Assembly: GCA_008632985.1 (NCBI GenBank)
Contig: QPGO01000127.1
Location: forward strand, 124,001 to 188,000
Length of the DNA: 64,000 nucleotides
Origin: Psammoneis japonica
Taxonomy: Eukaryota
Direction: 5' to 3'
Shown here: one piece after another, positions 4,990 through 44,540 of the stretch
How the letters are laid out: each line of letters begins with the position of its first letter
Position numbering within the stretch: position 1 is the first letter of the stretch
Position numbers and translations under genes: made by a program
Notes under the pieces: model-generated
Databases searched by the model: none
What the model saw: the letters and a program-made list of their open reading frames with translations, nothing else
What the model was told of the DNA's origin: nothing

Positions 4990-7900
4990 AGTTCTCTGCT
5001 TGTTTCGCGGTTCAGGCAGGATCCGACACACACTCTCCACTGTCATTTCGCGCCGACGCGTGTCGCTCGCTCCACTCAACACTCAACAAAAGCACCTGGA
5101 ATGATTCATGTGTGACAATTGTGGACCACTGTTGTGAATTTGATTTGTTTGGTGATGCATCCTTGCAGTTGGGAGTCAATTGTGCATCTCATCCCATTTT
5201 TTGGTTTTTGGGCAGCATGCTTAGAGCCACTTTGCATCGTGGTGGCGCTCGACTCCCTCAGTGCTCAACAAAAGCACCTGGAATGACTTGCGCATGACAA
5301 ATGACATTGTGGGATCATTTGGCAATGTGTCTTTGTGGCAAAGCAAGACTTGCATCTGGCCCTCGCCAAAGCGGTCACGCCAGAAAGCCCGCGGTTGTGT
5401 CGATTTTGCACACTGATGCTCTGGGCCTGCTGCTCCAGCTCTGGGTGTGCTGGCGCACAAGGGCTCGATTCCCATCACCGGCACATCATTTTTGCATTTG
5501 GTGCAATGAACTCCTTCAAAATCAGTTTTTCTTAAAATCAAAGGGTGAGTGCACACAAAACTTTTTTTTTGTGCACACTCACCTTTTGATTTTCGAAATG
5601 ATCAAATTTGAAGGAGTTTGGTGCTGTGCCAAACCGCACAGAAAATCAGCCTCTCACATGATGAAAAGCTCGTCACCTGGGGCTGGAACAGGCCTCTGCC
5701 ACTTGGAACTCAACAACAACTGGGATGGCTTCCACATGTTTGTTTGGTCCATTTCACATCATGTTGGTTTGTTTGGTCATGCAAAAATTTTGTTCGGCAA
5801 AACAAAAAGTGTGCGATTGAAGGCAGCAGCATGCGGCTGGGTTGCTGCGCCAGTCTGCAGCAGCTCTTTTGCATGCAACAACTTTGAAAGGCTGTGAAAA
5901 TCTTCCAAACAAACCAAATGACTGTCATTGAGAAATGTGCTCACCACAGCTGTGATGTTCAGTGGCAAATTTGTGTTTGTGTTGAAGGTGGGATTTGGAG
6001 GGTTGCATTGCACCCCGCACTCTGCCCGAGTGATCATGCAGGATTGTGACACATCCCCCAGCAAATGGAGTCAAGTGTGCTGCATGCTCCTGGCACACAG
6101 CAGCAAGACTCATCATCAAACAAACACATGATCATCTGGACAACATGCTGGGGGGGCTTCTCTGGACAGCAGCTGTTCAAAGAATCTTGTGCAGAATTTG
6201 TGCTGAAACAGTCTTTCAATCAAGCAGTGACACAGGATTCTGGTTGAATTCAGTGAACCCTGGACAGAGTTTGTGCAGCACATGTCTTTCACTTTGTGTG
6301 CCATGGCTGGCAGCCCAGCAAGACCGCGCAGATCCCATGTGCTTGAAGCACACTGCAGCAGCAGGAGAGCATTGCACACCACAGGAGAAGCATGGCAGAT
6401 TTCCCCAGTGGAGTGGCTCAATGACTTGGGCACTCCTTTTCTCAGAGAAAGGCCATGTGCAACATCCAGCTGCTTGCAAGAGTCAACGCATTGCAGTGAC
6501 GTGTTGCAGCCTTTAAATGTCACAAAGGTTGTGACAAAAACAACCTTTTGTCTGCATGCAGGCTGCATTGTGAATTCACAGTGGAGTGGCTCATTGCGTG
6601 ACCATCAGGCAGACAAAAGGTTGTGACAAAAATGACCTTTTGTCTGCATGCATGCTGCACATGTGCCCCCCCAGCCCTCCTGGTGTGTGGGCAGGTGGGG
6701 CTGCATGTGAGATGTTGGGCCTGCAGAATTCTGCATGTGAGCTCCACAGCAAAAGTGCCAGGCAATGAACACATGGATGATCGCTGACAGAAAAAAGCCA
6801 TTTCTTTGTGAATGAATGGGCTCCTCTCCACAATCAGATGTTGCAAGTTGTGCAAAGCAAAATCTTTCAGAACATGGGCAGCTGGCGCTTGTCTTTTGCC
6901 ACAAAGAAAACAGCCTGCTCTGCTGTTGCACATGCCATCTTGAGGGGCAAGAAAGGACAGCCCGGCCCCCAGCACATGACAAAGCCAAAAATGTGCTTGT
7001 GGAGACAATGACAAGCCACGCGCATGCAAAAACAAAGCTGGCAGTTTGTGAACAAAGCATGGTGGGTTGTCAGCTTTGGGCAGCTGCAGCAACCTGCAAC
7101 CTGGCAAGAATCATGCATTCATTTTCCACTGCCAAAGGTGGTGTGTGAGCTCTTTCAGCAGATTTGTCAATGTCAGGGGTTGCTGATCACAGGGGGGTGG
7201 GACAGCAAAAAAGAAAACAACACCTGGAGCAGGTGGAAAAGGAGAGAAAAGAGCCAAAGCTCACAAGGGGAGCAGGGAGCAGCGTCGTTGAAGCAGATAC
7301 AAAAAAAACAACCCCCCACTCACACAGGGGGGGGGGGGGCACAGAGACCACTGTTTCTCATTCGTTTCTGATCTGCACTGAAGGGACTGGAACACATCAG
7401 CAATGACCACCAAAATTGGCGTCAAATTTGCCACAGCATTGTTTTCAGTGGTGGGTGCTGCTTGTTGTCTTTTTGTTCAGCACAAATGGACAGGCTTGTG
7501 AATGACATCAGTGACTTTCAAGCACAAAGTTTTTGCACCCTTTTCTTGTGAAATTTGGTCCCCCATTTTAAAAGAAACCAATGTGCAAATGATGCCATTG
7601 AACCCAACATGTCTCAGCCAGTCTCAGCAGGCATTGCAGTGCAATGGAAGTCCATTTTTGGTGACCTTGTGCATCTGATTTCTTCAGGCAAGGTGTTGCA
7701 ACATGCAAAATCCTGTGAATGCAACAGGTCCATTTTGGCAAGAAGCATGCAACATTTTGCCTTTTTCTTCATGCAATCCATTGACACTGCTTCTGCAATC
7801 ACAAAGTTGAAAAAAGTTTTCAAAATGCAAACACGTGCAGAAACAGCCATTGAGGTGCTGGGTTGTTGGCCTCAGTTGAAACATTCAGTCATGCAGCCCT

Positions 7901-9985
7901 AACTTCAAAGTCAATCGTTGGTGTTCACAGTTGGTCTGCTGAGTCCAAGCTTCTTGGCCATGTGTGTGACACATGTGCACATGGTGACTGGCCACCAATG
8001 CATCACAGACCAAACCACAAGTTTCAATCAGCCTCAACAACATTCAACAATGTTTCACAAGGCCACAACAATCCAAGCAAAAGTCCCAACACCACTCAAC
8101 CAGTGAAGACAATGTTGGAAAACAACTGGGCAGAATCAAGACATTGACAGCAGCGCTGGAAAACAAAAACCAGGTGCAGTCTCTTTGTGCAAGCACATGC
8201 CACACACAAACACAGGACATTTTTTTACATTTGGTGGGCAGCGCAAGACAGAATCTGCACCCTTGTTCTTGTCCACACAGTGAAAAATGCGCACTGTCAA
8301 AAACCCCAGATGTGATGGAGGGCAGAAAGAAACAAAACATTTTGACCTTTCAAGAAAAGTGAAGGAGGGAAGGTGTGAGGAGCAAAGAGGGAAAACCTTG
8401 CCACACTGGGGTGGGTGGCAGGAGTCTCAGCAGCTGGGCTGTGCACCTAAATTTTGGTTTGCTCTTTGTCCAACTTCTCAGCACTTTTTTCAACTGGCCC
8501 ATGCTTGACTCTGAGAAAATCCTCATGCTCCTGATTTTGGGCCAGTTGCTTGGAGAGGATGCTGGGGAGGGGGGCAGTTCTTGAGGCCTGAAAAAAAGGA
8601 AACAACCAAAGGTGTCAGATGTCAGCAGCAAGCTGTGTGAAGAAAAAATTTTCAGAGCACAGGCAGTTGACTCTTTTGCCACAAAGAAAACTGCCACCTC
8701 TGCCACTCTGCACATGCAGCTTGCACCACATTTTGGGGGCAAGAAAAGACAATCCCTGGCAATTGATGACAAGGACAAAAATGTGCAGGGACAATGATGA
8801 GCCACATGCTTGCAAAAACAAAGCAGGAGGTTCATGCATTCATGCACAAAGTTTGGCAAGGCATCAGCTTTGAGCAGCAATGGTCTGGCAGCAAGAACCA
8901 TCCGTTCTCATTTAGATCTTTCAGCACATTTGCCAATGCCAGGTTGCTGATGAGCATCTCAACAGCGTCCTTCAGAAAAAAGGAAAACAGAGATGAAAGA
9001 GATGTGGCTCATTGGAAGCAGTTTCTGCAGAGCGCAGCGCATCATCAAGCCACACAAGACTTTGAGTGTGCAGCAACATGGTGGCAGCTGCACAAACATG
9101 ATTGAAAAAAACTTGCAAAAATGCATGCCACTCTGGCAAAAGCCACTCAATCATCTTGTCATCATTTAAAAGCGTCAACAAGCTCAGCCTCTGCCACGCC
9201 ATCTGTCTGGAGTCATTGTTGAGGAGCCTGTGCTTTGCTTGATTGCAGACATCCCCCCAAAGAAGAGCCCAGTGTGAGTGCACCAACTGCCACAGACCAG
9301 CTGTCTTTCTGACAATGACATTTCTCTTGGTGCTTTCATCAGAAACCTGACTCTCTCATTGTTTGCAGCTCTGGCAATGAATGAGCTCGACCTCTCTGCT
9401 CATGCTTCTGTTTGCCTGGCATCATTGTCAGGGCACCCGCCGACAACCCTTTTGACCGTGGGTCTCCCAAGGAACTGGTCAAGCTTTCCAAATGTGAGTG
9501 CCAGTTGCCACAGTTTGCAGCACAAACCTGGCTCCCCCGGCAAGTGTTGCAGCAAGAGCTGCTCTTCGTCTCTGTGCCCTGGCCTTTGCACAGCACACCT
9601 CATCGCCTCATCGAGCATCAGAGATTGGTGGAAAGCCAGCATCTCATTGGAAACAATTGCCATTGCTGGGCAACAGGTCATGGCCAGTTGTGGGGTCTTT
9701 GCCAAACAAACTTGTTCGAGGCTGTGATGTGCACTCTGCCCTGCTTCCCATGCTGAAGAAACATGGTGTGTGGTGGGCGGGCTCATCGCTTTGCCCCGTG
9801 AGCCCCCCTTTCTCTCCTGCTGCTCTGTGTGCTCCAACTGCCTCCATCAATCCTGTGAAGAAATGGCCCACTTCTAGGGTTGCTGTGCATGTGTTCACCA
9901 GCGATGGCGCATGCACTCGCGCCTGTGAGCCATCTGGCGCATGGCGCGCGGGGACCTGCCCGTCAACGCAACCGCCATCGGCCAT
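4990..9985. other. TpA/CpG-depleted, TpG/CpA-rich decayed domain A
   Basis: Only a handful of TA dinucleotides in ~5 kb. Six-frame ORFs here almost lack Tyr and are Cys/His/Gln/Met-rich. Contains internal degenerate direct repeats. Confidence 0.9.
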
Positions 9986-10126: not shown

Positions 10127-12869
10127 ATGCTTGTGTTTCAATGTTTGATTGCGTTGAGCACATTTCGAGCTGTACGCGGTTTCGCATACGCACCAAACTT
10201 TATCACGAAAATCATTGAACAAGACACTGGAATTGAACCGATTGGACTGTTGCAAGTCGAGGAGGAGACGGAAAAAATCAATGGTGTGGCAGAAGACATA
10301 AAGTTACATCGCCAGTGACAACCAGATTTCCCCCCGAACCCAATGGCTACTTACATTTGGGCCACGCCAAGGCGGTATCTTTTAATTTTGCAGTCGCACG
10401 CATGTTTGGAGGCACTTGCAACATGCGTCTTGACGATACGAATCCCAGTAAGGAAGGACAAGAATATGTAGATTCCATCTTGGAAGATGTGCGATGGATT
10501 CAGTCGGGTTTGTACGACGGAGATGCACCTTGGTCAGGATCGGTTCGGCAAACTTCCGACAATTTTGATTTGATTTATGATTGCGCTGTTGCTCTCATTA
10601 AGCAAGGCGATGCCTATGTTGATTCGCTTTCTGCGGAGGAAATGAGAGAGTACCGGGGAACTCTTACTGAACCTGGTAAAGATAGTCCTTATCGAAGTCG
10701 TAGTGTGGAAGAGAACCTTGATCTCTTTGCACGGGTAAGTTGGTGTCGTTTTTCGTAATACGTGTTAGTATGGCGCGCTTCTCTGCTCACTCTGATATGA
10801 TATTGTAATAATCATGTCATCCTCTTCTTTGCAGATGAAAGCAGGAGAATTTTCAGAGGGTGAATACATTTTGAGAGCAAAAATCGACATGGCCTCTCCG
10901 AACATTAACATGCGGGATCCTGCGCTGTTTCGCATCAAGCACGAGTCTCATCAGAGTACGGGCGACGAGTGGTGCATTTACCCCATGTATGACTTTAGTC
11001 ATCCCATTTCAGATGCTGTAGAAGGAATTACTCACTCACTGTGTACTCTGGAATTCGAGGATCATCGTCCATTTTATGATTGGACCGTGGAGAAACTGAA
11101 ATCTGCTGGTCTCCTGTCGGCCAATCCTCAACAAATTGAATTCAGTCGCCTGAATGTCAAGTAAGGATATTGATATCGCGAATGTGGAGTTTCGCCACTT
11201 GATTTAAAGTGCTTCTTACACACGTGTGCGTTTGCTTTGTAGGAACACGGTCTTGTCCAAGCGAAAACTGATTCAGTTAGTGGAGGATAAGCACGTGAGT
11301 GGTTGGGACGATCCACGCATGCCCACCTTGTCCGGGATGCGGCGAAGGGGTATTCCTCCAGCCGCGCTTCGGCTATTTTGTGAGAGAATGGGTATCAGTA
11401 AGTCAGACTCGAACATTGATTACAAGGTGCTTGAGGAGTGTGTAAGAGAGGAAATGGACGAAGTTTGCGCTCGTGCCTTTTGTATTTTGAAACCCCTCAA
11501 GGTGACCATTCAAAACTGGGGTGGCTCCACTCTCGAGGACTTTGATGTACCACGTCATCCAAAGAAGGAGGAAATGGGCGAAAGAACGATTCCTTTTGGG
11601 AAGCACCTGTATATAGAACGTAGCGATTTCTTCGATACGGAGGGTCCGGAAGGTGAAGCTACTGGCAAGGCGCCACCTAGAGGTTTCAAACGGCTTCTTC
11701 CTGGAGGACAGGTTAGGCTCAAATATGCATATGTCATTAGTTGCGATGAAGTCGTGAGAGATCCAAAAACCAATGAGCCGACAGAGTTGGTCTGCACCGT
11801 CTATCCTGAAACACGAGCGGGCGTGACGCCCGAAGGAATGAAACGAGTCAAGGGAATTATTCAGTGGGTGGAAGCTAGCTCTGGCATCAAGTGCAAAGTC
11901 AACCAATACGACAGACTATTCCTTACCGAGGAACCGGGAAAAGAAAGTGGAGACTACATCAAGGATATAAATCCCAACTCGCTAGAAGTTTTGGAAGGGG
12001 TGGTCGTCGAACCAAGTGTTGCCATGGATGCGCTCTCCATTCTTGCCGACATTCGTCAACAGGAAGAAACTGGAGTCGAAGGAGAAAAGATTTACCCCTC
12101 TCAGTTGGCCTATCAATTCGAACGCAGTGGGTACTTTGCATTGGATCCAGCTTCGACGGACATTGACAATCTGGTCTTTAATCGCGTGGTCACACTACGA
12201 GACACCTGGGGTATGGATAAAAGCAACGCTGGTCAGTCGCAACGAAAGCGAGGCGATGGTAAAAAGCAGCCGCAACAGAGAAAAAGGGGTGGCGGCGGAG
12301 GAGGAGGTAACAATGCCGTTGTGGAAGACATTCGCCGCCCAGCCCTTCGAGCAGCCACGATTTTGGAAGCTGGTCCCCATCCGGAAGCAGATAGTCTTAT
12401 TGTGTGTAAAGTGGATTGCGGCGACGTCTCTGAGGAAACAAAAGAACCCGAACCTCGAACTGTGGTGGCAGGCCTTGCTGGTAAAATTCCTTTCGACGAC
12501 TTGGTTGGAAGTAAAGTTGTTTGCGTCACCAACCTCAAGCCTGCGAAGATGCGTGGAATAGAGAGCACGGCAATGCTCCTGGCGGCGTCCGATGGCCAGG
12601 AAGGTGACAACGAAAAGGTGGAACTCCTGTCCGTGCCTGATGCTGTCCCGAACGGAGAACTTGTGTCGTTTGAGGGCAAGGAAGCGAGCGAACCTGATCC
12701 CATGATGAAGAGCAAAGGCGCCGTCAAGGCATGGGAACGAGCCAAGTCAGGACTCCAAGCAAATGCTGAAGGGGTGGCGACGTATGTGCAAGACGGGAAA
12801 GATTACCCAATGATTACTAGCGCTGGCCCAGTGAAGACGACGTCGCTGGTCAATGCTGACATTCAATGA
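10127..12869 (+). CDS. glnS: Glutaminyl-tRNA synthetase with N-terminal targeting peptide and C-terminal tRNA-binding OB-fold (Trbp111/EMAPII-like)
   Basis: [28 protein letters not shown] (HIGH), [16 protein letters not shown], then [30 protein letters not shown]. Introns 10735-10834 and 11161-11242. One frameshift near 10275-10305. Confidence 0.93.
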
Positions 12870-12968
12870 CGAGCGATGCGACTACAAAGTTAAACAGCAG
12901 AGTTAATCAGAAGCTACTAGAAGAGGAATTGTAACTCTTATACCGCCTTTGCAACTACCGCCTCAACT

Positions 12969-15584
12969 TTAGTGCACAAACTTGTGGTTACTGCTGTCAC
13001 GGGATAGTTCGTTTTGGTTCACGCTTTCCAAAAAGTCTGCGTTGCTCTTATCCTTTGGGACAACAGCATCAAAACAGTCGCGTTCCAGGTATGTCTTGAA
13101 CTCTAAACCCAAGTAATCAAACACGTCCTTCTCGGTCTCCGCCTCGAGGATGAGCTTGTCGGTGGGACGGGGAATATTTACAATGTTGGTGTTTCGAAAC
13201 AGTCCGTGGTCATTCAGCGACATTCCCTTTACTTTTCTGGTGTAGAGACGCATTGACCTGTTAAAATGTCCATTTCCTTTCGTGTTCAGAAGCACCATAG
13301 AAATGCATTAGATATCGCGTTATGGACTGCGAAACAAAAACGGAGACACCAAGACACATACCGATAAAGTACAGACTCGCAAACACTCGTTCACGGTAGG
13401 GATAGAACTTGATGTCGATACGTCTGCGTTTGCCGGGCACGACAGGAGAGCAAAATACACCCATGTATGAGGAAGAAGAGCCATATCCCATTGCCACTGC
13501 TTCGCTCGATTCATAGTCCTGGCTGCCATCGGTTGTATCCTCAGACTCGTCGAGGCCAGACAATCGCGTCAAGTGATGATAAATGTGCCCACGTTTCCTC
13601 AATCGCTCGGCTAGTTCGCTAATAGCTCCCCGCGGTGTGGTGGCGACAAAGTCGGGATGAGTAATGAGAATGTCAATGTCACCACACGAAACACTGCCTC
13701 GTCGATAGCTCCCCATGAGTTCCACAACGGCCTTGGGGAAGCGTTCCAGACACGCCTCTCGAACAATAGCTGCAATCGCTTCGACTTCCTTCCGCGTCAT
13801 TTTTTCTCGAAAGTCTTCATAACATTCGAGACCGACCAACTGGTTGCGGGTCAAGGTCGTCAGAGTACCCGATGACACTCCGGCACGAACCTGATCAATG
13901 CTCATAAAGCCCGCGTTCAGCAGCTCGCTTGCCTGGTGTTATAACGACGCGAATAGTGCATCCCATTTTGAGTGGTGTGAGATTGGTATCAAGAATGCAG
14001 TGCTCAACAGTTAAACTCACCCGTTTCGGTCCAACATCATATATATGTGTCAATTGGTCCATGGCGATACGGTCAGGATCTTTTTCAAACTCGATAACAC
14101 GCTGGCACTCGCCCGTTTCCAAGTATTCTCGAATCTTTTGTATAGTGGAAGGTCCAAATCCGTTAATGGCTTGCAATCGTTCCAACACGTCCTCGTCGTT
14201 TGTCACATTAAAGTCAAGGTTGCGCAGTCGACCAGCTACCCTTGTAAATGTGTATGCCCTCCATTCGTCTTGTGACTGCAAGGGACAATCTTGGTGGAGT
14301 TTGGCAAGCTTTGCAAAGAGATTGGATAATTCCATGTTTCTAAAGACGAGACGAGTATGAAGAGCATTGAGTGAGACTTATGCAAGAGTACCCAGAGTCA
14401 ACCATTGCTAAGGCATACCTTTGTTTGGGATTGCCATTTGACCCCTCGTTGGCGGTTTCGGCTGCCGGCTTTTTTGCCTCTGGCGGAGCCTGTTCAGCTT
14501 GCTTCTGTCGCCCGTTGGCAGGACAATTTTCCTTTTCAACTTTTCGTTTCTACAATATACAAGTAACAATGTTAGCCACTCCGCAGGCATATATACCAAA
14601 CGGTACTTTGCATACAGTTACCTTATTGTTTGCTGTAGTGGAAAATCCCAGTCCGTTCCACACCTGCGCAAAGGTTGGATCCTCGAGCGTGAGGCCTCGT
14701 GCTTTTGCCACCCAGTCTGGTTTTACAAGTTCAATCTCGTGCTTGTCGACAAATCCAGTCAATTCTCCCACGGTATCAAACTTGCAATGCTTGGCCAATG
14801 CTGGTGGAGGCACGCCAGATTCCACGACAATGTGTGTCACGCCTTTTGCAAGATCTTGAACAACAGTTGCGCCCTTGGATTTTGCAAACTGAGTCAAGCA
14901 ACCAATCCGAGTCTCTGACATGCTGGGTCCCAACGCTACAAAGAATAAGCAAAAGCCCTTTGCTTTTTTGTCTTCTATAACAAGAGACTCTTGCGATGAT
15001 TCGGCAGTCAAATCAACCGTATCTGGAATTTTCTTTTGCGGAGCAACGGCCGCTTTAGTTTTCTTTGCCACCGGTGCGTCAGCCGTCGGCTGAACTTCAC
15101 GCTTTTTCAATGCTTGTTCACTCTTTAACACCACTAATTCAAATTCCATTTTTCCAGATATCTGTAATTCTGCTGCACCAAGCGTTAGTATGGACCCCAC
15201 CTTGACTGGTACGGGTCCTAACCACTCGCCGCTACCTTGCGGAGGCGCTTTCTGCCCGTCGATTCTCGTTAGAAAACGGGCATTCACGCCCCTCACACTC
15301 ACGTATCCAACAACATCATCCCCATCCTTTGTATTCTTTGGTTGAGCATACGTAAATTTGACCATTTCACGAGAGAGTTTAAAGCCCCAGGCTTCCACGG
15401 GGCTGCACTTATTGCATTTCTGCTTGGGATTGCAATTGCAGGCGATTCGCATGGATTTCAAAAACTCGCGTCGTCCCAGAATCGTATTATTCTTCTCTAA
15501 ACAAATAACTGAAGCTTGATTCGTAGCATTAGCACGACGTGTAGGGAGCCAACCGTACTTAATGATGGTTGGCGATTCTGTCAT
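12969..15584 (-). CDS. POLL: X-family DNA polymerase (lambda-like) with BRCT and a putative FHA-like N-terminal domain, 5 exons
   Basis: BRCT-like (GVTHIVV..LVKPDWV), HhH GFGPSTIQKIREYLETG, MGSYRRG..CGDIDILIT, RRIDIK, YFIGNGHFNRSMR, TEKDVFDYLGL. In-frame GT-AG introns 14621-14550, 14418-14340, 14020-13933, 13361-13277. Confidence 0.9.
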
Positions 15585-15832
15585 GGTCACCCTATTTGTT
15601 TCGCTGTCTCATCATCAACTTTGAAACTCTCAACGCGATTTTGATTTGCGATCCAAGACAGTCTGACCATCTGTCCCATCGATTTCATTCTTTGCCCACA
15701 TCATCGTCCTTCTCTATCTCGCTCCCACGAAAGCTTGGCCTCCTGCTCTACTCTCTGCTCGTAGTGCATGGCGACAATCTCCACTCTCTAGTGGTAGCTA
15801 GAGTTGCTCGAGTAGAGGGCCCTCTCTGCTAG

Positions 15833-16895
15833 AGAGGACTTTGCATGGCAGGTGGCGGCAGGGCAGTTGAGACGCCACAGAAGGCAGTGGAGTGTTGTGT
15901 GATGCAGCATTGTGGCAAGGTTGCAACTGTTGTGGAGACCTTGCAAGGTCAATGGAGGCACTTGTTTGCATGCCGCCAATGGTTTCAGCACTGACCCTGT
16001 GAGGGCAAAGATGCATTTTATGTCCCCGAAGGTGGCGGAATCCGGGTTCTGGATTTTTGACAGAAACGCCATCGGGGACATTTTTCATGACCCCTTGGGT
16101 GCCAGGATGACGAAACGAGCATTTGTGCCCACGGGCAAAAAGCACCCTGCCAGGCGGAAGGCACCCGGAAAACAGTGCCCTGTTGGGCACTTTGCTTCTT
16201 TGCAGGGTGTCCGGCACGTGATGAACGCCCACAACATGCGCTGCAATCCTGCGAGCTCTGGCAGCTCTTTTGCAGCAACTCCCTCCAACCCAAGTTTTCA
16301 CATCAAGAAATCACACAAGCAACCATGAGCCATGAGCCACTCTCCCACCTGCTCCCACCCCTTCCAGCCACAAGACAATGCCTGCTTGCAGCACAGAAGA
16401 GTTGCTTGCATTGCACAGCAAAGAAGACGTTGACATTTTTGGCCTGACGGCTTCTCAAAATGCGCCTGCTGCTGGCGCAAGTGATGAGAGGCTGCTGTCG
16501 TCAACAAGGCAACCGACCGGCCATCAGGTGGCAAAAAACGTTTGTGTTTCAGTTTCCTGGCATCTTTGAGAAGGCAGCCGGTGAGCACATTTCTGCTTGG
16601 ATTTGCCCTTCTTCACATTGTTTTGATCAAAATCGAGCTCCATCATGCATTCTCAAATTGTTGGATGATCTGGCACTCTTCAAGATGAGCTGCCGGAAGG
16701 AGCACTCAGCACTTCTGTTGCTCATAAATTGCTTGTGTTGAGTGCCAACAAAATGGGTCATCCAAGGACAAAGCATGGCGTGACTGCTGCAACGAATCCG
16801 TGAGCTCCAAGAATGATGCCATCAAGTTGGGAGCGGTGATGGGGGTGATGGAGAAAACATCATTTTGCAGTTTAGATGGAGACGACTGACAAGCA
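15833..16895. other. TpA-depleted domain B (CpG largely retained)
   Basis: One TA seen between 15833 and 16724, while dozens of CG remain. No credible CDS. Confidence 0.85.
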
Positions 16896-17567
16896 CTGTA
16901 AACAATTTGGGCTATAAATCGAACATCCACAAGCGGCATGTCTTGGTTTGCGTGAGGCATAAAAAATAGACGTCAATCTGTTTTCGAGTGATTCTCCGTT
17001 ACGGAGAGACACACTTGCTGTGGACAATTCGAGTCACATTAAATCCTGGCTATATTTTTTTTGCTATTTTTGATTAGGAAGTTTTGGAAAGTGACAAATC
17101 TAGAATTGTCTAATTTTAAAAAAGTTACGTATTACAAATCTTGAGCTATGACGTTATGTATGTTGATAATCTAAAACTGTCCAGTTCTAGAATTGGACAA
17201 TTTAGTTCTCTATGCATAGAGAGCGAAATTGTGGGAAAATGTCCGAAAGACATCGTTTCGACTTTAATAAGTCATTTTGAAAGAAAGTTTCATAAATGGT
17301 TTTGAAAAGTACATTATTTTTAAGATATGTTCATAATCATCACTCTGTCGTGCTGTAGTAGGCATAAAAAGGTACTATGGTACCGGTATTGACCATTTTC
17401 AGTCATTTGACGCGATGTTTCAAGTTTTGGATCCTGCATGCAACCGTGGTTCCCGTCATGATTCCGACGCACGAGTATTCATGTTGTCCATTATTTCTAC
17501 TTTTGCTCTCGTTCGAAAGCATCTGCGGTAGAACAACTGCAAACCATCTCTCTCATATCAATCATTC

Positions 17568-19298
17568 ATGAAGTATTCAGCTCTGACTGTTTTTGGATTG
17601 CTCTCTGCAGCAACCATTGGGTTTGTCGCATGGGACAAAACTCGTTCCCACGAGTTCAAGATGACCAAGATGTCACCTCCGGAAGGACCAGGAGACGTTT
17701 CAAACACCCTCAATCTTGGTGCACATGAGCCGTGCTTCATCTGTGGAACAACAGATGGGGTTGTGGGTAACAAGGATGCAATGGTTTCGGCGCCTTCCTT
17801 TCTGCGCGGCATAGATGGCGGCAAGCATCATGGCGTTACTTGTGAACGCTACGACAACATGGGTGTGACCGGTAACATCGTCCCAGAGTTGTGTAACGAT
17901 CCTTTGCACAAAGCCTACATCGACGTACAATGCGAGTGTATGGCAAAGAAGAACGACGCGGACGCTGCGACGCCACCGGAAGGTGGTGTTCGAGAAGACG
18001 GTGGAGGGGAATACTTCCAAGATGCCAACCTCAAGCGCCTAGGCCTTCGGGTACACAAGCGAGCTCGAGATGGGGCAATTGGTCTCCAGTTGGCCGATGG
18101 CCGACCCATCACTCCCGACATTCTTGAAAAGATGCGCAACAGAATCAAGACCGGGGAGGGACGCAAGCTTGGTGACAAATCTGCAATTGTGATAGACAAT
18201 GGTTCAGGCCTTATTAAGGCCGGCTTTGCTGGCGACGATGCTCCCAGAGCAGTCTTTCCGTCAATTGTAGGCCGTCCCAAGCACCCAGGCGTGATGGTAG
18301 GGATGGGACAAAAGGATGCTTATGTTGGTGATGAAGCCTTTGCGAAACGTAGCATACTGACCATCAAACATCCTATCGAACATGGCATCGTGACCAATTG
18401 GGACGACATGGAAAAAATTTGGCATCACACGTACTACAACGAACTCCGTGTAGCTCCTGAAGAACATCCCGTGTTACTCACCGAAGCCCCTCTCAATCCG
18501 AAGGCAAATAGGGAGAAAATGACACAAATCATGTTTGAAACCTTCAATGCCCCACAATTCTATGTGTCAATCGCAGCCGTGCTCAGTCTATATGCGACCG
18601 GAAGAACCACAGGGATTGTTCTCGATGCTGGTGACGGTGTTACCCACGTTGTTCCAATTTATGAAGGCTATGTGCTTCCTCATGCTGTGAACAGGCTAGA
18701 CCTTGCAGGAAGAGACGTCACAGACTTTCTACGAACGATCCTGTCAGAACGCGGTTACTCATTCACAACTTCGGCTGAAAAAGAGATTGTCCGTGACATC
18801 AAGGAAAAATGTTGCTTCGTGGCTATCCACTATGATGACGAGATGCTAATGGCGTCCGTACGGAAACACGAACACGATCAGAACTACGAACTACCTGATG
18901 GTCAAGTCATTACTATCGGCGCCGAACGATTCCGTGCACCAGAAATGCTGTTCAAACCTCGTTTGATAGGTTCAGAGCAAAAAGGGATTCACAGGCTGGT
19001 GCATGATACGATTATGAAGTGTGATTCTGACACTTGGAAGGAATTGTATGGCAACATTGTGATGGCTGGCGGAAGCACCATGTTTGAAGGCATTGCAGAA
19101 AGGTTACAAAAAGAAGTGTATTACCTTGCTCCTGATGAAAGTGTGGTAGTCAAAGTAATTGCTCGTCCTGATCGAAAGTATTTGGCGTGGATTGGGGGCT
19201 CAATCCTTGCCAATCCAGAAGACTTTGAGGACAGGTGGATCACCAAGGACGAATACGACCAAGCGGGCCCATCAATTGTTCACAGAAAGTGCACTTAG
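17568..19298 (+). CDS. ACT: Actin-like protein with a 201-aa N-terminal extension (signal peptide, Cys-rich domain, RKL site)
   Basis: Single 576-aa ORF. Residues 202-576 are actin ([86 protein letters not shown]). N-terminus [22 protein letters not shown]. Confidence 0.9.
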
Positions 19299-22200: not shown

Positions 22201-22325
22201 CAAAAAATGTGTGAACCAAGAAGAGGGCAACAAGCAATGTGCTGCAGGTTTCATGACAATTGATGTGGTGTCAGCAGCTCACAACAGCTGTGAACTGATG
22301 AATGCCACCATCATTGAAAGACATT

Positions 22326-22983: not shown

Positions 22984-23052
22984 GAAGGGGTTGCCAAATG
23001 GATGCAATTGCCATGACAGACCACAGACTGCACTGCACAACAAAAACCATGC

Positions 23053-28728: not shown

Positions 28729-28910
28729 ATAATTTCTGCGCCTCACCTGTTGGTGGGCTTCTAACTAGGAAACCTACAAGCAGGAACTACAGGATTCGAT
28801 TTGAGTGCAAGGGAGACAGATCGAAAGCAACCTCAAGATGGTGGCAAGAACTTTTTGTTGAAGATGGGTCAATACTACTTTGTGTCTCTGGCACTGAAAA
28901 ATCACAACTG
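28170..28910 (+). pseudogene. Decayed 3' copy (including 3' flank) of the VMO-I gene at 49497-50702
   Basis: Colinear with ~50110-50857, e.g. tcttctggcaattggttcctttgtcagtgg versus tcttctggtaattggttcctttggcagtgg, and agcaggaactac in both. Has indels and stops. Confidence 0.9.
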
Positions 28911-29492
28911 TCGCACGCTTCCCGGCAGAAGAACTTCAGAAAAGACACAATGCGGAACGTTCTGCCATTGCTCTTGTTGACTGTGACAGCATGCCACGAG
29001 CAAATGCCGTCAGAACCCTGGGCGGTATGCCCATCCATCTCACAGAAATGCGGATGCTCAGAAGGTTTGTCGGCCGCCTCTTGCCGTTTGTGAAGAAGGA
29101 GATGACACGCGGCCTTCGCTTGGAGATTGTATTCTGCGATGCGATGTTGTTGACGACGGTGAGCATTCGGAATGATTTGCCATAGAAATCTGGAGCGCCT
29201 GCTCCCCCGGAATGAAGTTCAGTCCAGAAGGCATTGGCAATCACTTGAGTGTCTGGATGCGATCTGACGTTTTGCAAGGCGCATGGCTTGTATTGCGAAT
29301 CTTGTACTGTGTCCCGATCGTCTTGTCGTACTTTTGCTGCATATCTCAATTCGACGTCACGACGCATCCGACGTATTGGCGAAACAAAGACAATGTTTTG
29401 CGTAATACATGACTTGGACGAGAGGTTGAGCAAAACGAAACTCCAGAGTTCAGCTCGCATACGGTAGGCGTTGTACATGCATAGAATCAACC

Positions 29493-31787: not shown

Positions 31788-31936
31788 CAGAACAAGACCA
31801 TTGTAGATCCACTGAGTATCATGCCAAGTTGAGCTGACAGCATCGTCTTTGTAGTACTCTGGCTAACAGAACAAAACCGTCGCAGGTCCACTGAGTATCA
31901 TGCCAAGTTGAGCTGGCAGCGTCGTCTTTGTAGTAC
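31788..31936 (+). repeat. 70-bp direct repeat, period 79
   Basis: 31788-31857 versus 31867-31936, 7 differences, all transitions. Confidence 0.9.
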
Positions 31937-37374: not shown

Positions 37375-37732
37375 GAGACACAAATAGATATTCTCGTTTG
37401 TACTTCTGACAAGGACGACTCTTGCGCAGCAGATCTCTCATAACATCGTTTCTCTCGCAGTCTCTTACGGTACCACTTCTTCCGAATCGCCAACAGCATG
37501 ATGTGCTTGTTTCAGTCTGTTCTCCGCGGTCATTATTGTGCCTCAATTTGTTTTTTAAGCCCACCATGCAAATGACCCAAAAACTATGTCCGTCCACTAT
37601 GATATTTTGAATACAAGTACCACACAAGGTACCATACATTTATCTCCTCATTTTTTTTTCCAGCGTAACTGTAGCATAGAAAGTCACAACCCAAAGTAGT
37701 TATTGCTAAACCAGGCATGAGCATGAAGGGAC

Positions 37733-40700
37733 ATGGCGCCTTTACCTCTTTTCTTAATAGCGGCTGTTATAATGCTATGTTGTAATCCACTTGTCAAGGC
37801 CGGTTTTCCGAGCAACATGAGTGCACGAGATAAAGAAAAACTCGGGGGCATGATGAACGGACAACTTGCGATCCCCGATGCCATGCCGCTGTTTGTAAAG
37901 TACAAAAACAACAAAGGCAAAAGGGTTGCAAAGCGCTGGGCAAAGAACAAAAAGTTTGTAAAACATTTTCCAAAGCGCAAAATTGTGATTCTTCATGCCA
38001 AAAACAGCACCGCTCTTAGGATTCTCACCAAGAGCCGCGTCATTGCCTACGTCGAACCGGTTCACAAGGTGCATGCTCTGCCAGTAGGCGAGCATATACG
38101 AATGCTACATGCTCGTGTTTTAGAGGAACATATTGGCTATGGAGTCAAAATGGTACAGGCAGACAAATTATGGGACCTTCCTGCATCAAAGGACAAAATC
38201 ACGGTATGCGTCATCGACAGCGGATACGGGTTGGGGCACCCTGATTTGCCTAGCTTGGACAACAACGTTACTGGAACTTCGACAAGAACTGGCGATTGGA
38301 GACAAGACGGGTACGGTCATGGTACACATTGTTGTGGGATTATTGGCGCGGTTGGCGGCAATGACATGGGGGTTACAGGTGTGATAAGAGATCCTGCAAG
38401 ATTCAAGTTCCACATTGGAAAATGTTTGGATAGCAACGGAGACGGTACTGAGGGCGAAGTGTTGGATGCGTTCGACAAATGTAGAGATGCCGGAGCAAAA
38501 GTCATTAGCATGAGTCTAGGTGGAGACGATTACAGCGAGTCAATCCGGAGTGCTTGTAAGGATGCCTATGATGAAGGTGTTCTCGTGGTTGCTGCATCTG
38601 GGAATGGGGGGAACTCAGACTATTCATACCCAGCGTCGTTCCCAGAGGTCGTGTCCGTTGCAGCTGTTGATCAATTTATGAAGGTCGCTAGTTTCTCTCA
38701 ATACAACGACCAAGTAGAGATCAGTGCGCCTGGGGTTGATATTATTTCCACAGTCGTGACTAACAACGGACAAGATTTCGGCTACGAAAGATGGTCGGGA
38801 ACATCAATGAGTACTCCGTTCGTTGCTGGAGTAGCTGCAATGGTTTGGTCATACTTTCCTGAGTGCTCCAACAACCAGATCAGAAATGTTCTTATTCGAA
38901 CTGCAAAAGTTAGAGGTCGCCCCGGATGTAATGACGAGCTGGGGTTTGGCGTCGTACAAGCCAAGGATACATATGAACTGCTTAGGAAAGACGGATGCAT
39001 TGCAGGCGGCTTAGATCCTGCCATTTTGTCGGATGGCGCGGTGGGGGGGTGTCTTCAGGACCCACTGTATACAGCGTCTCCCACGGAAGCTCCCACCCCA
39101 TTCAGCTGTGAAGAGACGGTGTTTCGACTCGAGTTAACCACCGACAACTGGGCCGAGGAGACTTCATGGGTGGTAGCAAACTCTTCCAACGAGGTTGTGG
39201 GTTCCGGTGGGTCATACCGTGATTCCAACGTGTATACCGAGAACCTGTGCTTACCTCCTGATGAGTACACTTTTACTTTACGGGATTCCGGCAAGGATGG
39301 AATTTGTTGTGCTTATGGTCAAGGAGGCTATGAAATTTATTTCGATGAAAAACTTGTAAAGAAGGGTGGAAAGTTTGAAACTGAAGACACGGCTCTTTTT
39401 GGAGAGGTGTATGAGACCGACATAACGCCATCTCCAACCGCAACTTCCAGTGTGTGTCAAGATGACAACAAATGGACTTTCGTTACTTCTAGAGGAGTTA
39501 CAAAGAAATGCAAGTATTTGAAGGTGGATTCTACTTCGCGGTGCAAGCTTTTGGGGATCAACAAATCTGGAAAGGCCACTTCTGGCTTCTTCTCTTGCCC
39601 AGTTACTTGTGGTAGATGTTCCCCAAGGCTACCATCATCTCCTGTTACTTCGTCGCCAATGTCTAAGTCTTCAGAAGTGCCAATGACGTTGCTACCAACA
39701 ATATCAACATCACCTCCATCACCACAGCCTACAATTTCGCCTACCAAGTCTCCGACAAGCGTATCAACTGGAAGGTCAACGACGTTTCAGCCTACAGTAT
39801 TACCATCGTTTCCGCCTAATACTTTTCCACCGACGCCATCACCGACAACCCGGCCAACAGCGCTGCCGTCTTCGCAGCCTACAATGTCATCTACACAATA
39901 TCCCACTGCGCTGCCGACACTCCCTCCAATCTCACCTTCAGCATCACAAGACAAATCGTTGACAGTCGTACCGACAGAAGCCCCGACGTTAGCCGCTCCC
40001 ACTCCACCGACGCCAGCTCCAACCCCAACTGAGGCACTGCATACCAAAAGCCCGACATTGTCTCCAACTATGGCGCCCCCACCGCGGACGCTGGCCCCAA
40101 CTACAAAGTCGCCTACCAAGATGCCAACAAGATCTCCGACATTATCACCGACCGTAGCTCCCACGCCACCGCCGCTACCCGACGAGCCGTGTGATACCAA
40201 TTATTGCAATTTCTACGACATTGCCTGTGTCAAGGAATCCAAATTTCCGTATATCTCTACTTCGAATGGGGAGTCATATCTATGCTGTGTAGGCTCCGGC
40301 TTTTGTAAGGACTATCGAGATGGCAGAAACCCCTCCAGTGTTCAAGGTAGCAGCTATGATTACCTCTGCTGTCGGGGGAAGCAGACATGCTCCGGTTCGC
40401 ACATTGAACTACCTCGCAAGGGAGCTTGCTGCCAAAGCACAAATTCCTGCAAGTTCTCAACGTTTACGAGATCCAATTCCATATCTGGTAGCATTGGACT
40501 GAGGTGTGAAGGCACTCAATCCTGCAAAGACACCGACTTTAAGAATGCTGGGCCGATGGACTTTTGCTGCACAAGCGACGGAGATCAGACGTGTGCAAGA
40601 ATGATTGAACCTGACATGGATAGCAGGGTGAATATGTTGACAAGAGATCCTCCCACCATCCCATCAGCACCAGAAACAGTATTAGCCCCAAGCACGGCTC

Positions 40701-41191
40701 TCGAAGAGCCCCCAACCGCACCACCTGACGAGCCGTGTGATACAAATTATTGCAATTTCTGCGACATTGCGTGTGTCAAAGAATCCAAACTTCCATACAC
40801 CGCTACTGTGAATGGGGAATCGTATTTGTGCTGTGTAGGCGAAAGCACATGTAAGGACTACCGAGAAGGCAGCAAACCCTCCAGTGTTGCTGGCCATGGC
40901 CATGATTATCTCTGTTGTCGCGGAAAGCATACATGCTCCGATTCACAAGTTGAGCTTCCTCGAAAAGGTGGTTGTTGCCAAAACATAAAGGCATGCAAGT
41001 CTTCGACATTTACGAGGTACAATTCCATTTCTGGCAGTATTGGACTAAGGTGTGAAGGTACCCACGCCTGCAAAGATTCTGACTTTAGGGGCGCTGGGCC
41101 AATGAACTTTTGCTGTATCAACGAAAAAGATAAAGCTTGCAGTAGAATGATTGACCTGGAAGCAAGCAGTCAGGTGGTCTTCTTACCTTGA
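37733..41191 (+). CDS. Secreted subtilisin-like (S8) protease with C-terminal accessory domains, Pro/Thr/Ser linker and two Cys-rich repeats
   Basis: Signal peptide; triad VCVIDSG / HGTHCCG / SGTSMSTPFVAG; AASGN oxyanion site; RVL before the catalytic domain; repeats starting PDEPCDTNYCNF x2. Confidence 0.93.
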   Translation: MAPLPLFLIAAVIMLCCNPLVKAGFPSNMSARDKEKLGGMMNGQLAIPDAMPLFVKYKNNKGKRVAKRWAKNKKFVKHFPKRKIVILHAKNSTALRILTKSRVIAYVEPVHKVHALPVGEHIRMLHARVLEEHIGYGVKMVQADKLWDLPASKDKITVCVIDSGYGLGHPDLPSLDNNVTGTSTRTGDWRQDGYGHGTHCCGIIGAVGGNDMGVTGVIRDPARFKFHIGKCLDSNGDGTEGEVLDAFDKCRDAGAKVISMSLGGDDYSESIRSACKDAYDEGVLVVAASGNGGNSDYSYPASFPEVVSVAAVDQFMKVASFSQYNDQVEISAPGVDIISTVVTNNGQDFGYERWSGTSMSTPFVAGVAAMVWSYFPECSNNQIRNVLIRTAKVRGRPGCNDELGFGVVQAKDTYELLRKDGCIAGGLDPAILSDGAVGGCLQDPLYTASPTEAPTPFSCEETVFRLELTTDNWAEETSWVVANSSNEVVGSGGSYRDSNVYTENLCLPPDEYTFTLRDSGKDGICCAYGQGGYEIYFDEKLVKKGGKFETEDTALFGEVYETDITPSPTATSSVCQDDNKWTFVTSRGVTKKCKYLKVDSTSRCKLLGINKSGKATSGFFSCPVTCGRCSPRLPSSPVTSSPMSKSSEVPMTLLPTISTSPPSPQPTISPTKSPTSVSTGRSTTFQPTVLPSFPPNTFPPTPSPTTRPTALPSSQPTMSSTQYPTALPTLPPISPSASQDKSLTVVPTEAPTLAAPTPPTPAPTPTEALHTKSPTLSPTMAPPPRTLAPTTKSPTKMPTRSPTLSPTVAPTPPPLPDEPCDTNYCNFYDIACVKESKFPYISTSNGESYLCCVGSGFCKDYRDGRNPSSVQGSSYDYLCCRGKQTCSGSHIELPRKGACCQSTNSCKFSTFTRSNSISGSIGLRCEGTQSCKDTDFKNAGPMDFCCTSDGDQTCARMIEPDMDSRVNMLTRDPPTIPSAPETVLAPSTALEEPPTAPPDEPCDTNYCNFCDIACVKESKLPYTATVNGESYLCCVGESTCKDYREGSKPSSVAGHGHDYLCCRGKHTCSDSQVELPRKGGCCQNIKACKSSTFTRYNSISGSIGLRCEGTHACKDSDFRGAGPMNFCCINEKDKACSRMIDLEASSQVVFLP

Positions 41192-41479
41192 GATCATATG
41201 AGAGTTGCGGGCGAGCACTGGTGCACTCTGAGGAAATAACATTTGTCCGTGCATCCTCCATTTCAGCAGGTAGACAATGACGCTACGTGACAAAAATGCT
41301 CTCTCTTAGAGGGAAGCCCTGAAGCGGACTTTGGTAATATAGTGGGTGCTGTTCGGGTAAACGCATTATTACTGCGAGAATTCGTGACTCGAATCTATCA
41401 CTGCTAGCTCTCTTAGACAGGGCCCCATCGATAGTAACTCTACTCTACTCTTTAGATAGTAGCCAGCTACTAACTAGCT

Positions 41480-41774: not shown

Positions 41775-44540
41775 AATGAGGCACTTCCCCCTGTCTTTTC
41801 CAGCGCAGAGCATGGCAGGAAATGTCACACAACTTTCTTGCCAAACCAGGTGGGCATGAGCACAAAGGGACATGGCACCTTCACCTCTTTTCCAACAATG
41901 GTTGCTGCAATGCTGTTGCAATCCACTTGTCAAGGCCAGTTTTCCAAGTGACAGCATGAGCGCACAAGATGAAGAAAAAATGCAGCGCAAGACGAGCTGA
42001 CAAAAGCTGTGATTTTCCTGACACTTTTGCCATTGTCAGCAAAGCACAAAAACAACAAAGGCAATGAAATTGCAAAGAAATTGGGCAATGAACAAACAGG
42101 CAAGGTTGAAGACCTGCTTTCTCTCTCAAAGCTCAGAACCGGGTGGGGGTGGCTCTTGATGCAAAAACAGCACACCGCACTTCCAAGGTGTGCACTCTGA
42201 CTGCTGGAGCAAGACAAGCCTGTGCAGGTGTGGCATGCTTGTGTTCTGGAGAAAGCCATTGACCACAGCTTCAAAATGGTGCAGATGAAAAGGTGGTGCT
42301 CCTTGCAGTGTGCATTGCAATGAACAAAATCACAGCATGCACCATTGGCAGCAGAGCAGGTGTGGGTTGCAGCACCCCATGATCTGACTGGCACTGCTGA
42401 ACCTTTCAGAAGAACTGGGGATTAGAGACAGTTTGGGTGTGGTCACAGCATGCGCCACTGTTGTGACATTGTTGGTGGTGCCATTGGCAGCAAAATGATG
42501 CTGCAGGGGCTGCACATGCACAAGATGCAAGAAAGGGCAAGACAAAAGTTTCATGCACACACTGAAAACATTTGGATCAAAACAGAGACAGCATTGAGGG
42601 CAGCACATTGGGTGCATTGAAAAATTGTAAAAGTGCCAGAGCAAAAGACGTTGGCATGAATCCAGATCGTGATGACTGCAGCAAATTAATTTGTGGCATT
42701 CAACTTGCAAGGGTTCTCATGGTGAAGGTGTTTTGCTGGCAGTTGGCACAAAAGGACATTGTGAGATTTAGACCATTGACAACCAGCCACAGCCCCAGAG
42801 GCCAGCCATGACGGTTGATCAGCTCACAAACATCTCAGCTTTCTCTCAGTGTGACAGACAAGCAGCCTCCAGAGCCCAAGCCAAGAAGCTGCCAATGACA
42901 TCACCATCAACAGCACCACCATCATGATTGCAGCCTGCACAATGCCATCTCTTGTGCCAAATCTCCAGCAATGATGACAGCTGGAAGACCAACAACATTT
43001 CAGCCTGCAGCATTGACTCACTGTCATTTCTGCCTGGTGTTTTTCCACTGACGCACCACCATCAGCAGCACTGCCACCACTGTCATGGCCTGCAATGTCA
43101 CCCAGCTCCAGAAATCTCCCATGGGGACACAGACATTTCCTTCAATCTCACCTTGAGCATGTCACAAAACAAAACAATCACCGAACAAGACCATGCTGGC
43201 AGTGTGCTAGAAGCACCAACACCAGCTGCTGCCACTCCACACATGGTGCCAACTCCAACCCAAACCAAGGCACTTCAGTGTGCCAATGACCCAGCACTGT
43301 CTCCAACTTTGGCTCTCCCACTGCATTGATGCTGACCCCAGCCACAACCTTCTTGCCTGCCAAGATGCAACCAGCAAGGCAGATCTGTGACGTTGTTGCT
43401 GGCCGCAGCTTTTGTGCTGCTGCTGCCACCATCCAGCAAGCCATGGGATGACTGAGATTGCAAAAGTCCCTTGCTCAGCATTGCTGGCCCCACCAGCATG
43501 GTTGTGGCTGTGTGGTGGTCACATTTTTTGTTGCAGAAAAAGCAAGCATGCTCCAACTCACAACAGCTCAAAAATGTGGTCACACTGGCTGCCACAACAC
43601 AAAAACATGTTTTTGGCATTTGTCAGGCACACACCTCCATTTTTGGTGTCACTGGACCAAGGTGAAGGGGGGGGGCACAAAGCCTTGACAAAGACACCAG
43701 TGCACTGTCATCACCACCAAGAAAGACTGGCTTCAGCAGAGAGCGACTGACCTGGCTCGAAGCATGCAGCCAGGTGGTTTCCTCACTTAGAGACCCACCA
43801 AAAGTTGTGTGGAGTGCTGGCACATTCTCAGCAAAGAGCTCCAGTTGTCTGTGTGGATCAGATCCAGCCCCACTTGAGCATGAGAGAGAGAGAGAGATGA
43901 CGGTGCTGAGCCACAAAACTGCTCTCCAGCGGCGGTTGTCTGTGCAAGCAAATGCCATGTTTGCCCTGAGTGTGTTGTGAACTTGGCATTTTGACTCCAA
44001 ATGCCACCACCATTTTTCCAAATGTGCCCTGGTTCTTTCTCCACTGGTGGCAAATTTTCTGTTGATGGCAAAGCGCCGCCAAACAACACCTCACCGCCAG
44101 GGCACAGCAGGGGCACACGGATGACACAAGGGAGAGTCAATCGGAGGTGGCATTTGAAGGCTTCTGAACCCAAGAAATGAGTTCGTTAGTGCACATTTTT
44201 CACACACAAACCACAGCAAAATTTGTGGCATTGCGCTGAATTGGAGCCAGTTCCGCCAGAGCATCATGCGCGCGACATTGCGAGGCATTGTGTTTGTGCA
44301 GATGATGCACCACTGCTCTCTGGCAGAAGGAAGCCCTTCTCAACTGACTTCAACAACAAAGTGGGTGCCGTTGTGTTGGCGGGCAGATGCATTGCTGCGA
44401 GAATTCGTCACTCGGGTGCTCTCGCTTGTGATGCTCACCGACCCTGTGGCACGAGCGTCCGCCAAATCAATTTTATTCCCGGACTGCACTGACCTGGCAG
44501 TTCTTGTTCCCGCCAAGAAACACTTTGTCCTTTGCGAACA
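41775..44540. other. TpA/CpG-depleted decayed domain E
   Basis: TA almost absent. CG returns at ~44220, before TA does. Confidence 0.88.
41843..43795 (+). pseudogene. Decayed, internally deleted tandem copy of the subtilisin gene
   Basis: Colinear homology from the 5' UTR (aagggacatggcaccttcacctcttttc) through the catalytic N-half, linker and Cys repeat to the stop region (caggtggtttcctcacttagaga versus caggtggtcttcttaccttgaga). Confidence 0.9.

Follow-up and report, generated by a model that had tools for sequence, protein, structure and literature searches.

The diatom Psammoneis japonica carries, on contig QPGO01000127.1, a series of five islands in which the dinucleotide TA is almost absent, CG is scarce and both TG and CA are in large excess. 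We analysed these islands, referred to here as domains 1 to 5, within a stretch of 64,000 nt of the forward strand of this contig (the window), using sliding-window and whole-domain dinucleotide counts that are expressed below as observed/expected ratios (o/e). The remainder of the window is ordinary gene-dense DNA, and two of its open reading frames (ORFs), for a subtilase and for a VOMI-domain protein, have decayed counterparts inside the islands. In order along the window, the islands and these two ORFs are:

4990-9985, domain 1: 11 TA (o/e 0.03), CG o/e 0.27, CA 1.82, TG 1.79.
15831-16895, domain 2: 3 TA (o/e 0.05), CG o/e 0.47; a short island of multi-copy DNA.
19424-24830, domain 3: 17 TA (o/e 0.05), CG o/e 0.17; a mosaic island.
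26764-28730, domain 4: 4 TA (o/e 0.03), CG o/e 0.23; the left part is a copy of a domain 3 repeat, the right part a VOMI pseudogene.
37727-41191, plus strand: subtilase (Peptidase_S8) ORF, Pfam PF00082, E = 3.8e-50; intact, with normal TA and CG.
41775-44540, plus strand, domain 5: 8 TA (o/e 0.05), CG o/e 0.25; a decayed and shortened tandem paralogue of the subtilase.
49470-50702, plus strand: VOMI-domain ORF, Pfam PF03762, E = 4.1e-25; intact, with normal TA and CG.

Together the five domains hold 43 TA dinucleotides in 16,201 bp, where about 660 would be predicted from the density outside them (1,957 in the other 47,799 bp of the window). The TA o/e is 0.03-0.05 in each domain against 0.59 outside, the CG o/e is 0.17-0.47 against 0.95, and TG and CA stand at 1.64-1.95, compared with about 1.2. 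TG plus CA have risen by approximately as much as TA plus CG have dropped, and CA is approximately equal to TG in every one of the five domains, making the pattern strand-symmetric. The TpA frequency is 0.0027 in the domains and 0.041 in the bulk, the longest TA-free gap is 981 bp in the domains and 224 bp elsewhere, and the o/e of AA and TT is not lowered but slightly higher in the domains. A preliminary description of this DNA had reported five TA-poor, CG-poor and TG/CA-rich domains, and its edges lie within 52 bp of those recomputed here; it had allowed that TpA in these domains might turn out no lower than in the DNA around them, and the flanking intergenic DNA in fact retains a TA o/e of 0.6-0.9 right up to the edges.

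The loss of TA has a marked effect on the reading frames of the domains. Tyrosine makes up 0.06% of the residues in a six-frame translation of the domains as opposed to 2.4% outside, and the stop triplets comprise 785 TGA against 41 TAA and 27 TAG, in keeping with the dense, spurious and nearly tyrosine-free ORFs noted in the preliminary description; the lengths of the domain ORFs agree with chance expectation with TGA as the only stop, as estimated from trinucleotide frequencies. A scan with 300-bp windows found no sixth domain in the window, the one further 300-bp stretch lying within a gene and having normal CG and TG/CA. A single ORF at 59364-60782 joins FKBP, TPR and cyclophilin domains, and with them two kinds of prolyl isomerase; a 365-bp stretch of this ORF has two TAs only and normal CpG, which appears to be an effect of codon usage and not a domain. 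When the same criterion was applied to 38 metagenome loci (352 kb), retrieved with the Glu/Gln-tRNA synthetase ORF that neighbours the islands, no TA-free domain was found; these loci share at most 70% protein identity and none is a close relative, and they therefore say nothing on generality.

Reads that can be compared with the islands were found in three runs of one sample, which is probably the source of the assembly. Contigs built from the DNA run (X1, with no platform on record) differ from the window at 0-1 positions over records of 1.6-5.4 kb, both inside the domains and across their edges, and bridge the edges in records such as 23285-27215 and 27523-30000. The word depth of X1 over single-copy domain DNA is 58-62, equal to that of the flanking genes (about 60). 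An assembly or long-read calling artefact is therefore excluded, and the preliminary description, which had named a base-calling artefact on modified DNA as the outcome that would undo it, stands in this respect.

The islands differ in their make-up and in the number of copies in which their DNA is found. In domain 1, the final TA of the left flank is at 4989 and the following one at 5222, and the domain contains the internal repeats 6843-7041/8628-8827 and 5060-5104/5242-5286. The summed word depth of X1 contigs over domain 2 is 133-258 compared with about 60 in its flanks, and its sister copies have TA or CG at places where the window reads TG or CA. Domain 3 includes a high-copy element at about 20673-21339, for which the summed X1 depth is about 2,090 (contigs at least 85% alike) against about 60 for single-copy DNA, and in which one variant place is present in 38 contigs; its right third is single-copy, with an X1 depth of 62 at 23341-25341. 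A repeat of 690 bp is common to domains 3 (22325-22984) and 4 (27010-27684). Domain 3 also contains a local tandem duplication (23053-23201/23185-23333, about 132-150 bp, 92.7% identity), which arose after most of the conversion. At position 23803, within the single-copy part of domain 3, the window reads CA and the X1 contig CG (A versus G, depth 62.2/62.2); the cause may be either variation between haplotypes or a mistake in the assembly, and it is the sort of site at which ongoing change at CpG would appear.

Alignment of the islands with the rest of the window shows that at least two of them are dead copies of nearby genes. Domain 5 begins 584 bp downstream of the end of the subtilase gene and shares with it five collinear blastn matches, which include the 3' flank: 37700-37954 with 41835-42099 (73.5%), 38418-38544 with 42564-42690, 39703-40124 with 42906-43368, 41139-41193 with 43736-43793, and 41297-41391 with 44314-44414; by tblastn the match covers amino acids 1-229. 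The best homologues of the subtilase, as far as they are named, are all diatom proteins, at no more than 49% identity. In the right part of domain 4 (28131-28730) the VOMI-domain gene is present as a partial, decayed copy, the intact gene lying 21 kb away; blastn pairs 50071-50814 with 28131-28881 at 71%, and tblastn pairs amino acids 202-401 at 48-50%. This homology extends 150 bp beyond the TA-free edge of domain 4, and the edge is therefore not the boundary of an insertion or duplication.

Pfam scans of all six reading frames, in which stops were entered as X, returned no families in the 12 frames of domains 1 and 3 or the 18 frames of domains 2, 4 and 5; the recognised subtilase and VOMI pseudogenes also scored nothing, and these negatives are therefore uninformative on origin. 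Likewise, the period-3 signal in the domains is about 1.0, at noise level, and since it is the same in the domain 5 control it carries no weight. Among fifteen long domain ORFs, profile matches at E of 1 or below were noise only; none of 454 candidates proved homologous to the minus-strand domain 3 ORF 22481-23062, and neither a tRNA nor an Rfam element was found at the domain edges.

The intact subtilase and VOMI genes provide a proxy for the ancestral state against which the direction of change in the decayed copies can be read, and alignments over 28131-28726, 41835-42099, 42564-42690 and 42906-43368 were used for this purpose. Of 43 sites with TA in an intact gene, 39 read CA (21) or TG (18) in the decayed copy; of 72 sites with CG, 54 read CA (35) or TG (19) there and 4 have kept CG. 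The dinucleotides TG and CA were themselves largely retained (55/77 and 81/102, respectively). With strands folded, the fraction of adenines changed to G is 0.44 at TpA, close to the ceiling of 0.5, compared with 0.14 at ApA, 0.12 at CpA and 0.13 at GpA; the fraction of cytosines changed to T is 0.39 at CpG, 0.20 at CpT and 0.08-0.09 at CpA and CpC. Both halves of the change put forward in the preliminary description, a decay of CG to TG/CA and a second, domain-restricted A to G (or T to C) process at TpA, are thus seen in these alignments, and the second is also seen in the less-converted sister copies among the X1 contigs.

The base that follows the adenine also influences conversion. Adenines in T[A]N were converted in 19 of 30 cases in TAC, 10 of 23 in TAT, 7 of 21 in TAA and 6 of 22 in TAG, and where the two strands of a site differ in context it was the adenine with a 3' pyrimidine that had changed in 17 of 23 sites (p = 0.035). 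In agreement with this order, the largest trinucleotide gain is in TGC/GCA (ratio 1.86), and the TAs that survive in the domains are enriched in YTAR, a poor context on both strands (28/43 against 310/1,963 outside; odds ratio 10, Fisher p = 1e-12). On the 5' side, the neighbour of a hit adenine is T only, the adenines of CpA not being hit. The preferred target is T[A]Y. A runs test for TG versus CA gave z values of -0.1 to -1.0 in all five domains; the outcomes are independent of their neighbours, and therefore reflect many single hits on both strands. For the same reason, processive single-strand bursts, whether kataegis-like or of the kind expected from a single round of a process resembling repeat-induced point mutation (RIP), are rejected. 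These counts establish the composition of the islands and the direction and sequence context of the changes within them.

The repeated DNA of the islands shows where and when the changes took place. Among 27 in-domain variant places listed (182 further rows lie beyond them), 7 read TG or CA in the window and TA in the X1 sister copies, and 6 read TG or CA in the window and CG in these copies; two CA/TG doublets account for 4 more, TG is found against a window CG at 2, and 8 are unrelated to these steps. The two copies of the repeat shared by domains 3 and 4 differ at 59 of 643 aligned positions, 33 of which fall at pyrimidine-purine (YpR) steps and comprise 11 TG/CA doublets, 7 CG present in one copy only and 4 TA present in one copy only. 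From these differences we estimate about 0.8 conversions per then-unconverted site per lineage against about 0.02 for ordinary change, a ratio of the order of 10^2; this estimate is rough, assumes equal odds of TG and CA outcomes, and pools doublets derived from TA with those derived from CG. Conversion thus acted on this DNA in place, and it continued after duplication.

The edges of the islands separate the loss of TA from the loss of CG. When the ten edges are pooled, the TA o/e is 0.81 immediately beyond the islands and only 0.10 over the outermost 100 bp of the islands themselves, while the CG o/e follows a course of 0.85, 0.76, 0.37, 0.42, 0.37 and 0.29, reaching 0.15 more than 500 bp inward. 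The edges were defined by TA positions, which means that the TA step is partly produced by construction; the lag in CpG is not. The switch to normal composition over 100-300 bp given in the preliminary description is borne out in outline, with TA switching more sharply than this (less than 100 bp from the edge) and CG over 100-500 bp. The inward lag of CpG loss relative to the abrupt loss of TpA argues against a single enzyme or repair patch for both; TpA loss and CpG loss are two overlapping processes.

We propose that two context-specific, island-confined transition processes have probably rewritten repeated and pseudogenic DNA in place, and that the first of these is likely due to a deaminase of the TadA/ADAT type. 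In the first process, A:T is changed to G:C at TpA in a strand-symmetric manner and by independent hits, in the order TAC, TAT and then TAA and TAG, with an abrupt stop at the edge of the island; the most likely agent would be a TadA/ADAT-type adenine deaminase acting on DNA that is marked as silent or repeated, and converting A to inosine, which is read as G. In the second process, C is changed to T at CpG, presumably through deamination of 5-methylcytosine, to a degree that deepens inward from the edges. The dinucleotides TG and CA are the common sink of both processes. The enzyme, its targeting through chromatin or methylation and a role in defence are the parts of this proposal that we infer.

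A process of closely similar specificity has been measured in the chlorarachniophyte Bigelowiella natans, in a 2026 preprint on which we draw here as far as its main text goes (Mettrop et al.; 10.64898/2026.01.13.699255). In mutation-accumulation lines of this organism, 231 of 302 nuclear mutations fell in two viral regions, one of an integrated giant virus and one of a virophage; of these 231, 230 were A to G or T to C, and all 230 were on TpA. These mutations arose at about 6e-7 per site per generation, some 1000-fold above background, and in some of the lines only. The B. natans genome contains 124 TpA-poor and CpA+TpG-rich clusters and 324 predicted low-TpA coding sequences, in which the TpA frequency is 0.0018 against 0.041 overall and among which host-like Pfam families are included, and the authors propose a TadA/ADAT2-like deaminase (10.64898/2026.01.13.699255). 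The islands of P. japonica display the same features, with A>G specific to TpA and with TpA-poor, TG/CA-rich composition in all five domains: in both organisms the change is A to G or T to C at TpA, is confined to domains and leaves a footprint of TpA depletion with CpA/TpG enrichment, and the saturated TpA frequencies are 0.0027 here and 0.0018 there, with a bulk value of 0.041 in both. They differ in that the host is a stramenopile diatom here and a rhizarian there; in that the two targets traced here are copies of the host subtilase and VOMI genes and not viral or foreign DNA; in that CpG is co-depleted here with its own spatial profile, the main text of the preprint making no mention of CpG; and in the preference for a 3' pyrimidine here, that text mentioning neither the 3' neighbour nor diatoms. 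The rate, measured there, is only inferred here.

A TadA/ADAT-like DNA adenine deaminase would be the enzyme class that best fits this pattern. The natural substrate of TadA and ADAT2 is tRNA, with the sequence U33-A34, whereas the target here would be whole domains of DNA. DNA editors derived from TadA inherently prefer YAC, and in one variant YAY ranks above YAR, according to the accessible text of the source (PMC12528748); the favouring of T[A]Y over T[A]R in the islands matches this, while the restriction of the 5' position to T, with CpA spared, sets them apart from the YAC preference of these editors. The 3' context, with T[A]Y favoured and TAG worst, would thus fit the TadA-like deaminase that the preliminary description had listed among its candidates.

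Several points weigh against our proposal. The reads share a sample with the likely source of the assembly, and are not from an independent strain. An origin in host genes is traced for domain 5 and the right part of domain 4 only. The polarisation of changes assumes that the intact genes represent the ancestral state, and the paralogues are old, with about 17% divergence outside TA and CG sites. The raised C>T at CpT has no explanation in our proposal, and could be a third, weaker context or an artefact of polarisation. The 3' preference is a relative one, in that YTAR sites in the paralogue alignments have also been converted (7/8). The evidence consists of an end state and a single comparison of paralogues, and the cause may instead be a slower bias, specific to the domains, that acted over a long time. 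The methylation and silencing of the locus are presumed, and the documented targets in B. natans are viral, where the two identified here are copies of host genes.

The same regional process at TpA may be written in terms of thymine chemistry, with a TET/JBP-type or other enzyme modifying the T of R[T]A, for example to 5-hydroxymethyl- or 5-formyluracil, such that it mispairs with G at replication and gives T to C. Sequence alone cannot separate A to G on one strand from T to C on the other, the two strands show symmetric outcomes, and R[T]A describes the motif equally well; moreover, the 5-hydroxymethyluracil of dinoflagellates is found preferentially at TpA, and 5-formyluracil mispairs with G. 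We know of no matching context preference among thymine hydroxylases and of no such thymine modification in diatoms, and the order seen here, with TAC best and YAY above YAR, matches that of TadA-derived DNA adenine deaminases in the accessible text of PMC12528748; we consider thymine modification unlikely.

A process that has no dedicated machinery, in which spontaneous lesions (hypoxanthine from A, T from 5-methylcytosine) go unrepaired in old, compact and unexpressed DNA and the context bias is attributed to lesion chemistry or repair, is in our view slightly more doubtful. The paralogues are old enough (65-73% identity by blastn) to have been exposed for long, the decay of CpG is commonplace and passive, and the conversion rate here is an estimate, not a direct observation. 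However, the signature in B. natans runs some 1000-fold above background (10.64898/2026.01.13.699255), and in the islands the adenines of ApA, CpA and GpA are at background, the flanking intergenic DNA keeps its TA up to the edge, and conversion at YpR sites exceeds ordinary change by the factor estimated above from the repeat copies. To our knowledge, spontaneous deamination of A has no strict requirement for a 5' T and a 3' Y.

The changes at A:T pairs could also be secondary to CpG deamination, the resulting T:G mismatch being drawn into non-canonical mismatch repair with errors of the type made by DNA polymerase eta, of which the spectrum is WA to WG. Both signatures do share the same domains; however, A>G at ApA is no higher than at CpA and GpA, AA and TT are not depleted, and the outermost 100 bp have already lost their TpA completely at a CpG o/e of still 0.76. 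In B. natans, the TpA signature is accompanied by almost no change from G:C to A:T (10.64898/2026.01.13.699255). This candidate of the preliminary description does not fit, ApA being untouched, and we regard it as highly unlikely.

There is very little chance that modified bases in silenced DNA were mis-called, with T given for 5-methylcytosine and G or C for a modified A or T: either dinucleotide concerned could plausibly be a target of modification and all runs found come from one sample, but the independently built X1 contigs match the domains at flank-level depth, strand-specific mis-reading at a palindromic step would yield two conflicting versions of each site rather than one clean contig, and the paralogous copies differ by fixed TG/CA versus TA/CG states. 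Just as improbable is editing before integration, with retro-insertion after an ADAR-like enzyme had acted on RNA or a deaminase had acted on cDNA, or foreign DNA of odd intrinsic composition; the TA edges are as sharp as insertion boundaries and three domains have no traced origin, but TG and CA are balanced in all domains where editing of RNA or cDNA is one-stranded, domain 5 is a tandem genomic duplicate with 3' flank homology, the VOMI homology crosses a domain edge, and two repeat copies kept diverging in place by TG/CA doublets. ADAR-type editing with retro-copying is rejected on the balance of TG and CA in every domain and on the position of TAG, the context that ADAR favours (as UAG), as the least converted (6/22).

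Our proposal of two island-confined processes resembles fungal RIP in that repeated DNA is irreversibly inactivated by mutation, in sharp domains and with a dinucleotide signature of transitions. The enzymes of RIP are the cytosine methyltransferase-like RID and DIM-2. In contrast to the islands, where TpA is lost and CpA/TpG gained, RIP changes C to T at CpA and so creates TpA; RIP also mutates both copies of a repeat, whereas the intact subtilase and VOMI sisters are untouched here. Fungal RIP is rejected on both counts, the opposite dinucleotide signature and the sparing of the intact sisters. The second process is like the decay of methylated CpG, in that change from CpG to TpG/CpA is limited to islands of repeats and pseudogenes and is strongest in their interior, and unlike it in that CpG decay covers only half of the signature. 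Decay of this kind over methylated repeats is known for diatom transposons; in Phaeodactylum tricornutum, for example, about 6% of the genome is methylated, as cited in the accessible text of PMC6604790.

The preliminary description knew of no account of such a signature in diatoms. The TpA signature itself has been described, in the B. natans preprint; no diatom report of TpA-erased domains was found in the literature searched, most subscription journals lying outside its coverage. The accessible text of the P. tricornutum mutation-accumulation paper makes no mention of such domains. The islands are best filed as a second, independent occurrence, in a different lineage, of the TpA hypermutation just described. 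The additions from this window are the TAY motif, the hitting of host duplicates with intact sisters spared, and the separable overlay of CpG decay.

If this reading holds, TpA hypermutation is not peculiar to one chlorarachniophyte and operates to saturation in diatoms, which are major and genetically tractable phytoplankton, and the TAY motif would point to the class of enzyme. A wider version is possible, though we hold it only tentatively: an enzyme-driven defence in diatoms, and by extension across a wide span of the stramenopiles, alveolates and Rhizaria, a RIP in reverse, in which a DNA adenine deaminase derived from TadA/ADAT permanently erases TpA (TAY) in whole silent or repeated chromatin domains, and TAA/TAG stops and Tyr codons along with it, in redundant copies of host genes as well as in viruses and transposons. 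Were this so, such a defence would determine what becomes of duplicated genes and would give rise to long spurious ORFs. On the practical side, the islands lose TAA and TAG and gain ATG, so that gene-prediction programs will annotate long ORFs there that are false, and any assembly can easily be scanned for such islands by a TA o/e below 0.1 together with TG/CA above 1.5.

The genes around the islands are covered by a second run, X2, which is labelled 'DNA?' and is cDNA-like, its contigs skipping intervals of 72-100 nt with GT..AG or CT..AC ends. The skips at 10531-15610 give the introns of the Glu/Gln-tRNA synthetase gene and of a gene for a BRCT-domain protein. The transcript-like contigs of X2 stop 39-420 bp from the domain edges, so that the islands are closely hemmed in by expressed genes; X2 cover over the domains is next to nil, which we do not count as evidence of silence. 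The outer 120-220 bp of domain 4 (26764-26985) are TA-free with a normal density of CpG; this segment overlaps the end of a plus-strand ORF (26230-26985), and 39 bp separate it from the end of the transcript-like contig 25250-26725. Between domains 2 and 3, a single-exon ORF at 17532-19298 encodes an actin domain, with an N-terminal extension of 215 residues ahead of the actin fold, and has the highest depth of transcript contigs in the stretch compared. A tandem repeat of 79 bp (1.9 copies, 90% matches) is found at 31788-31936, in DNA of normal composition.

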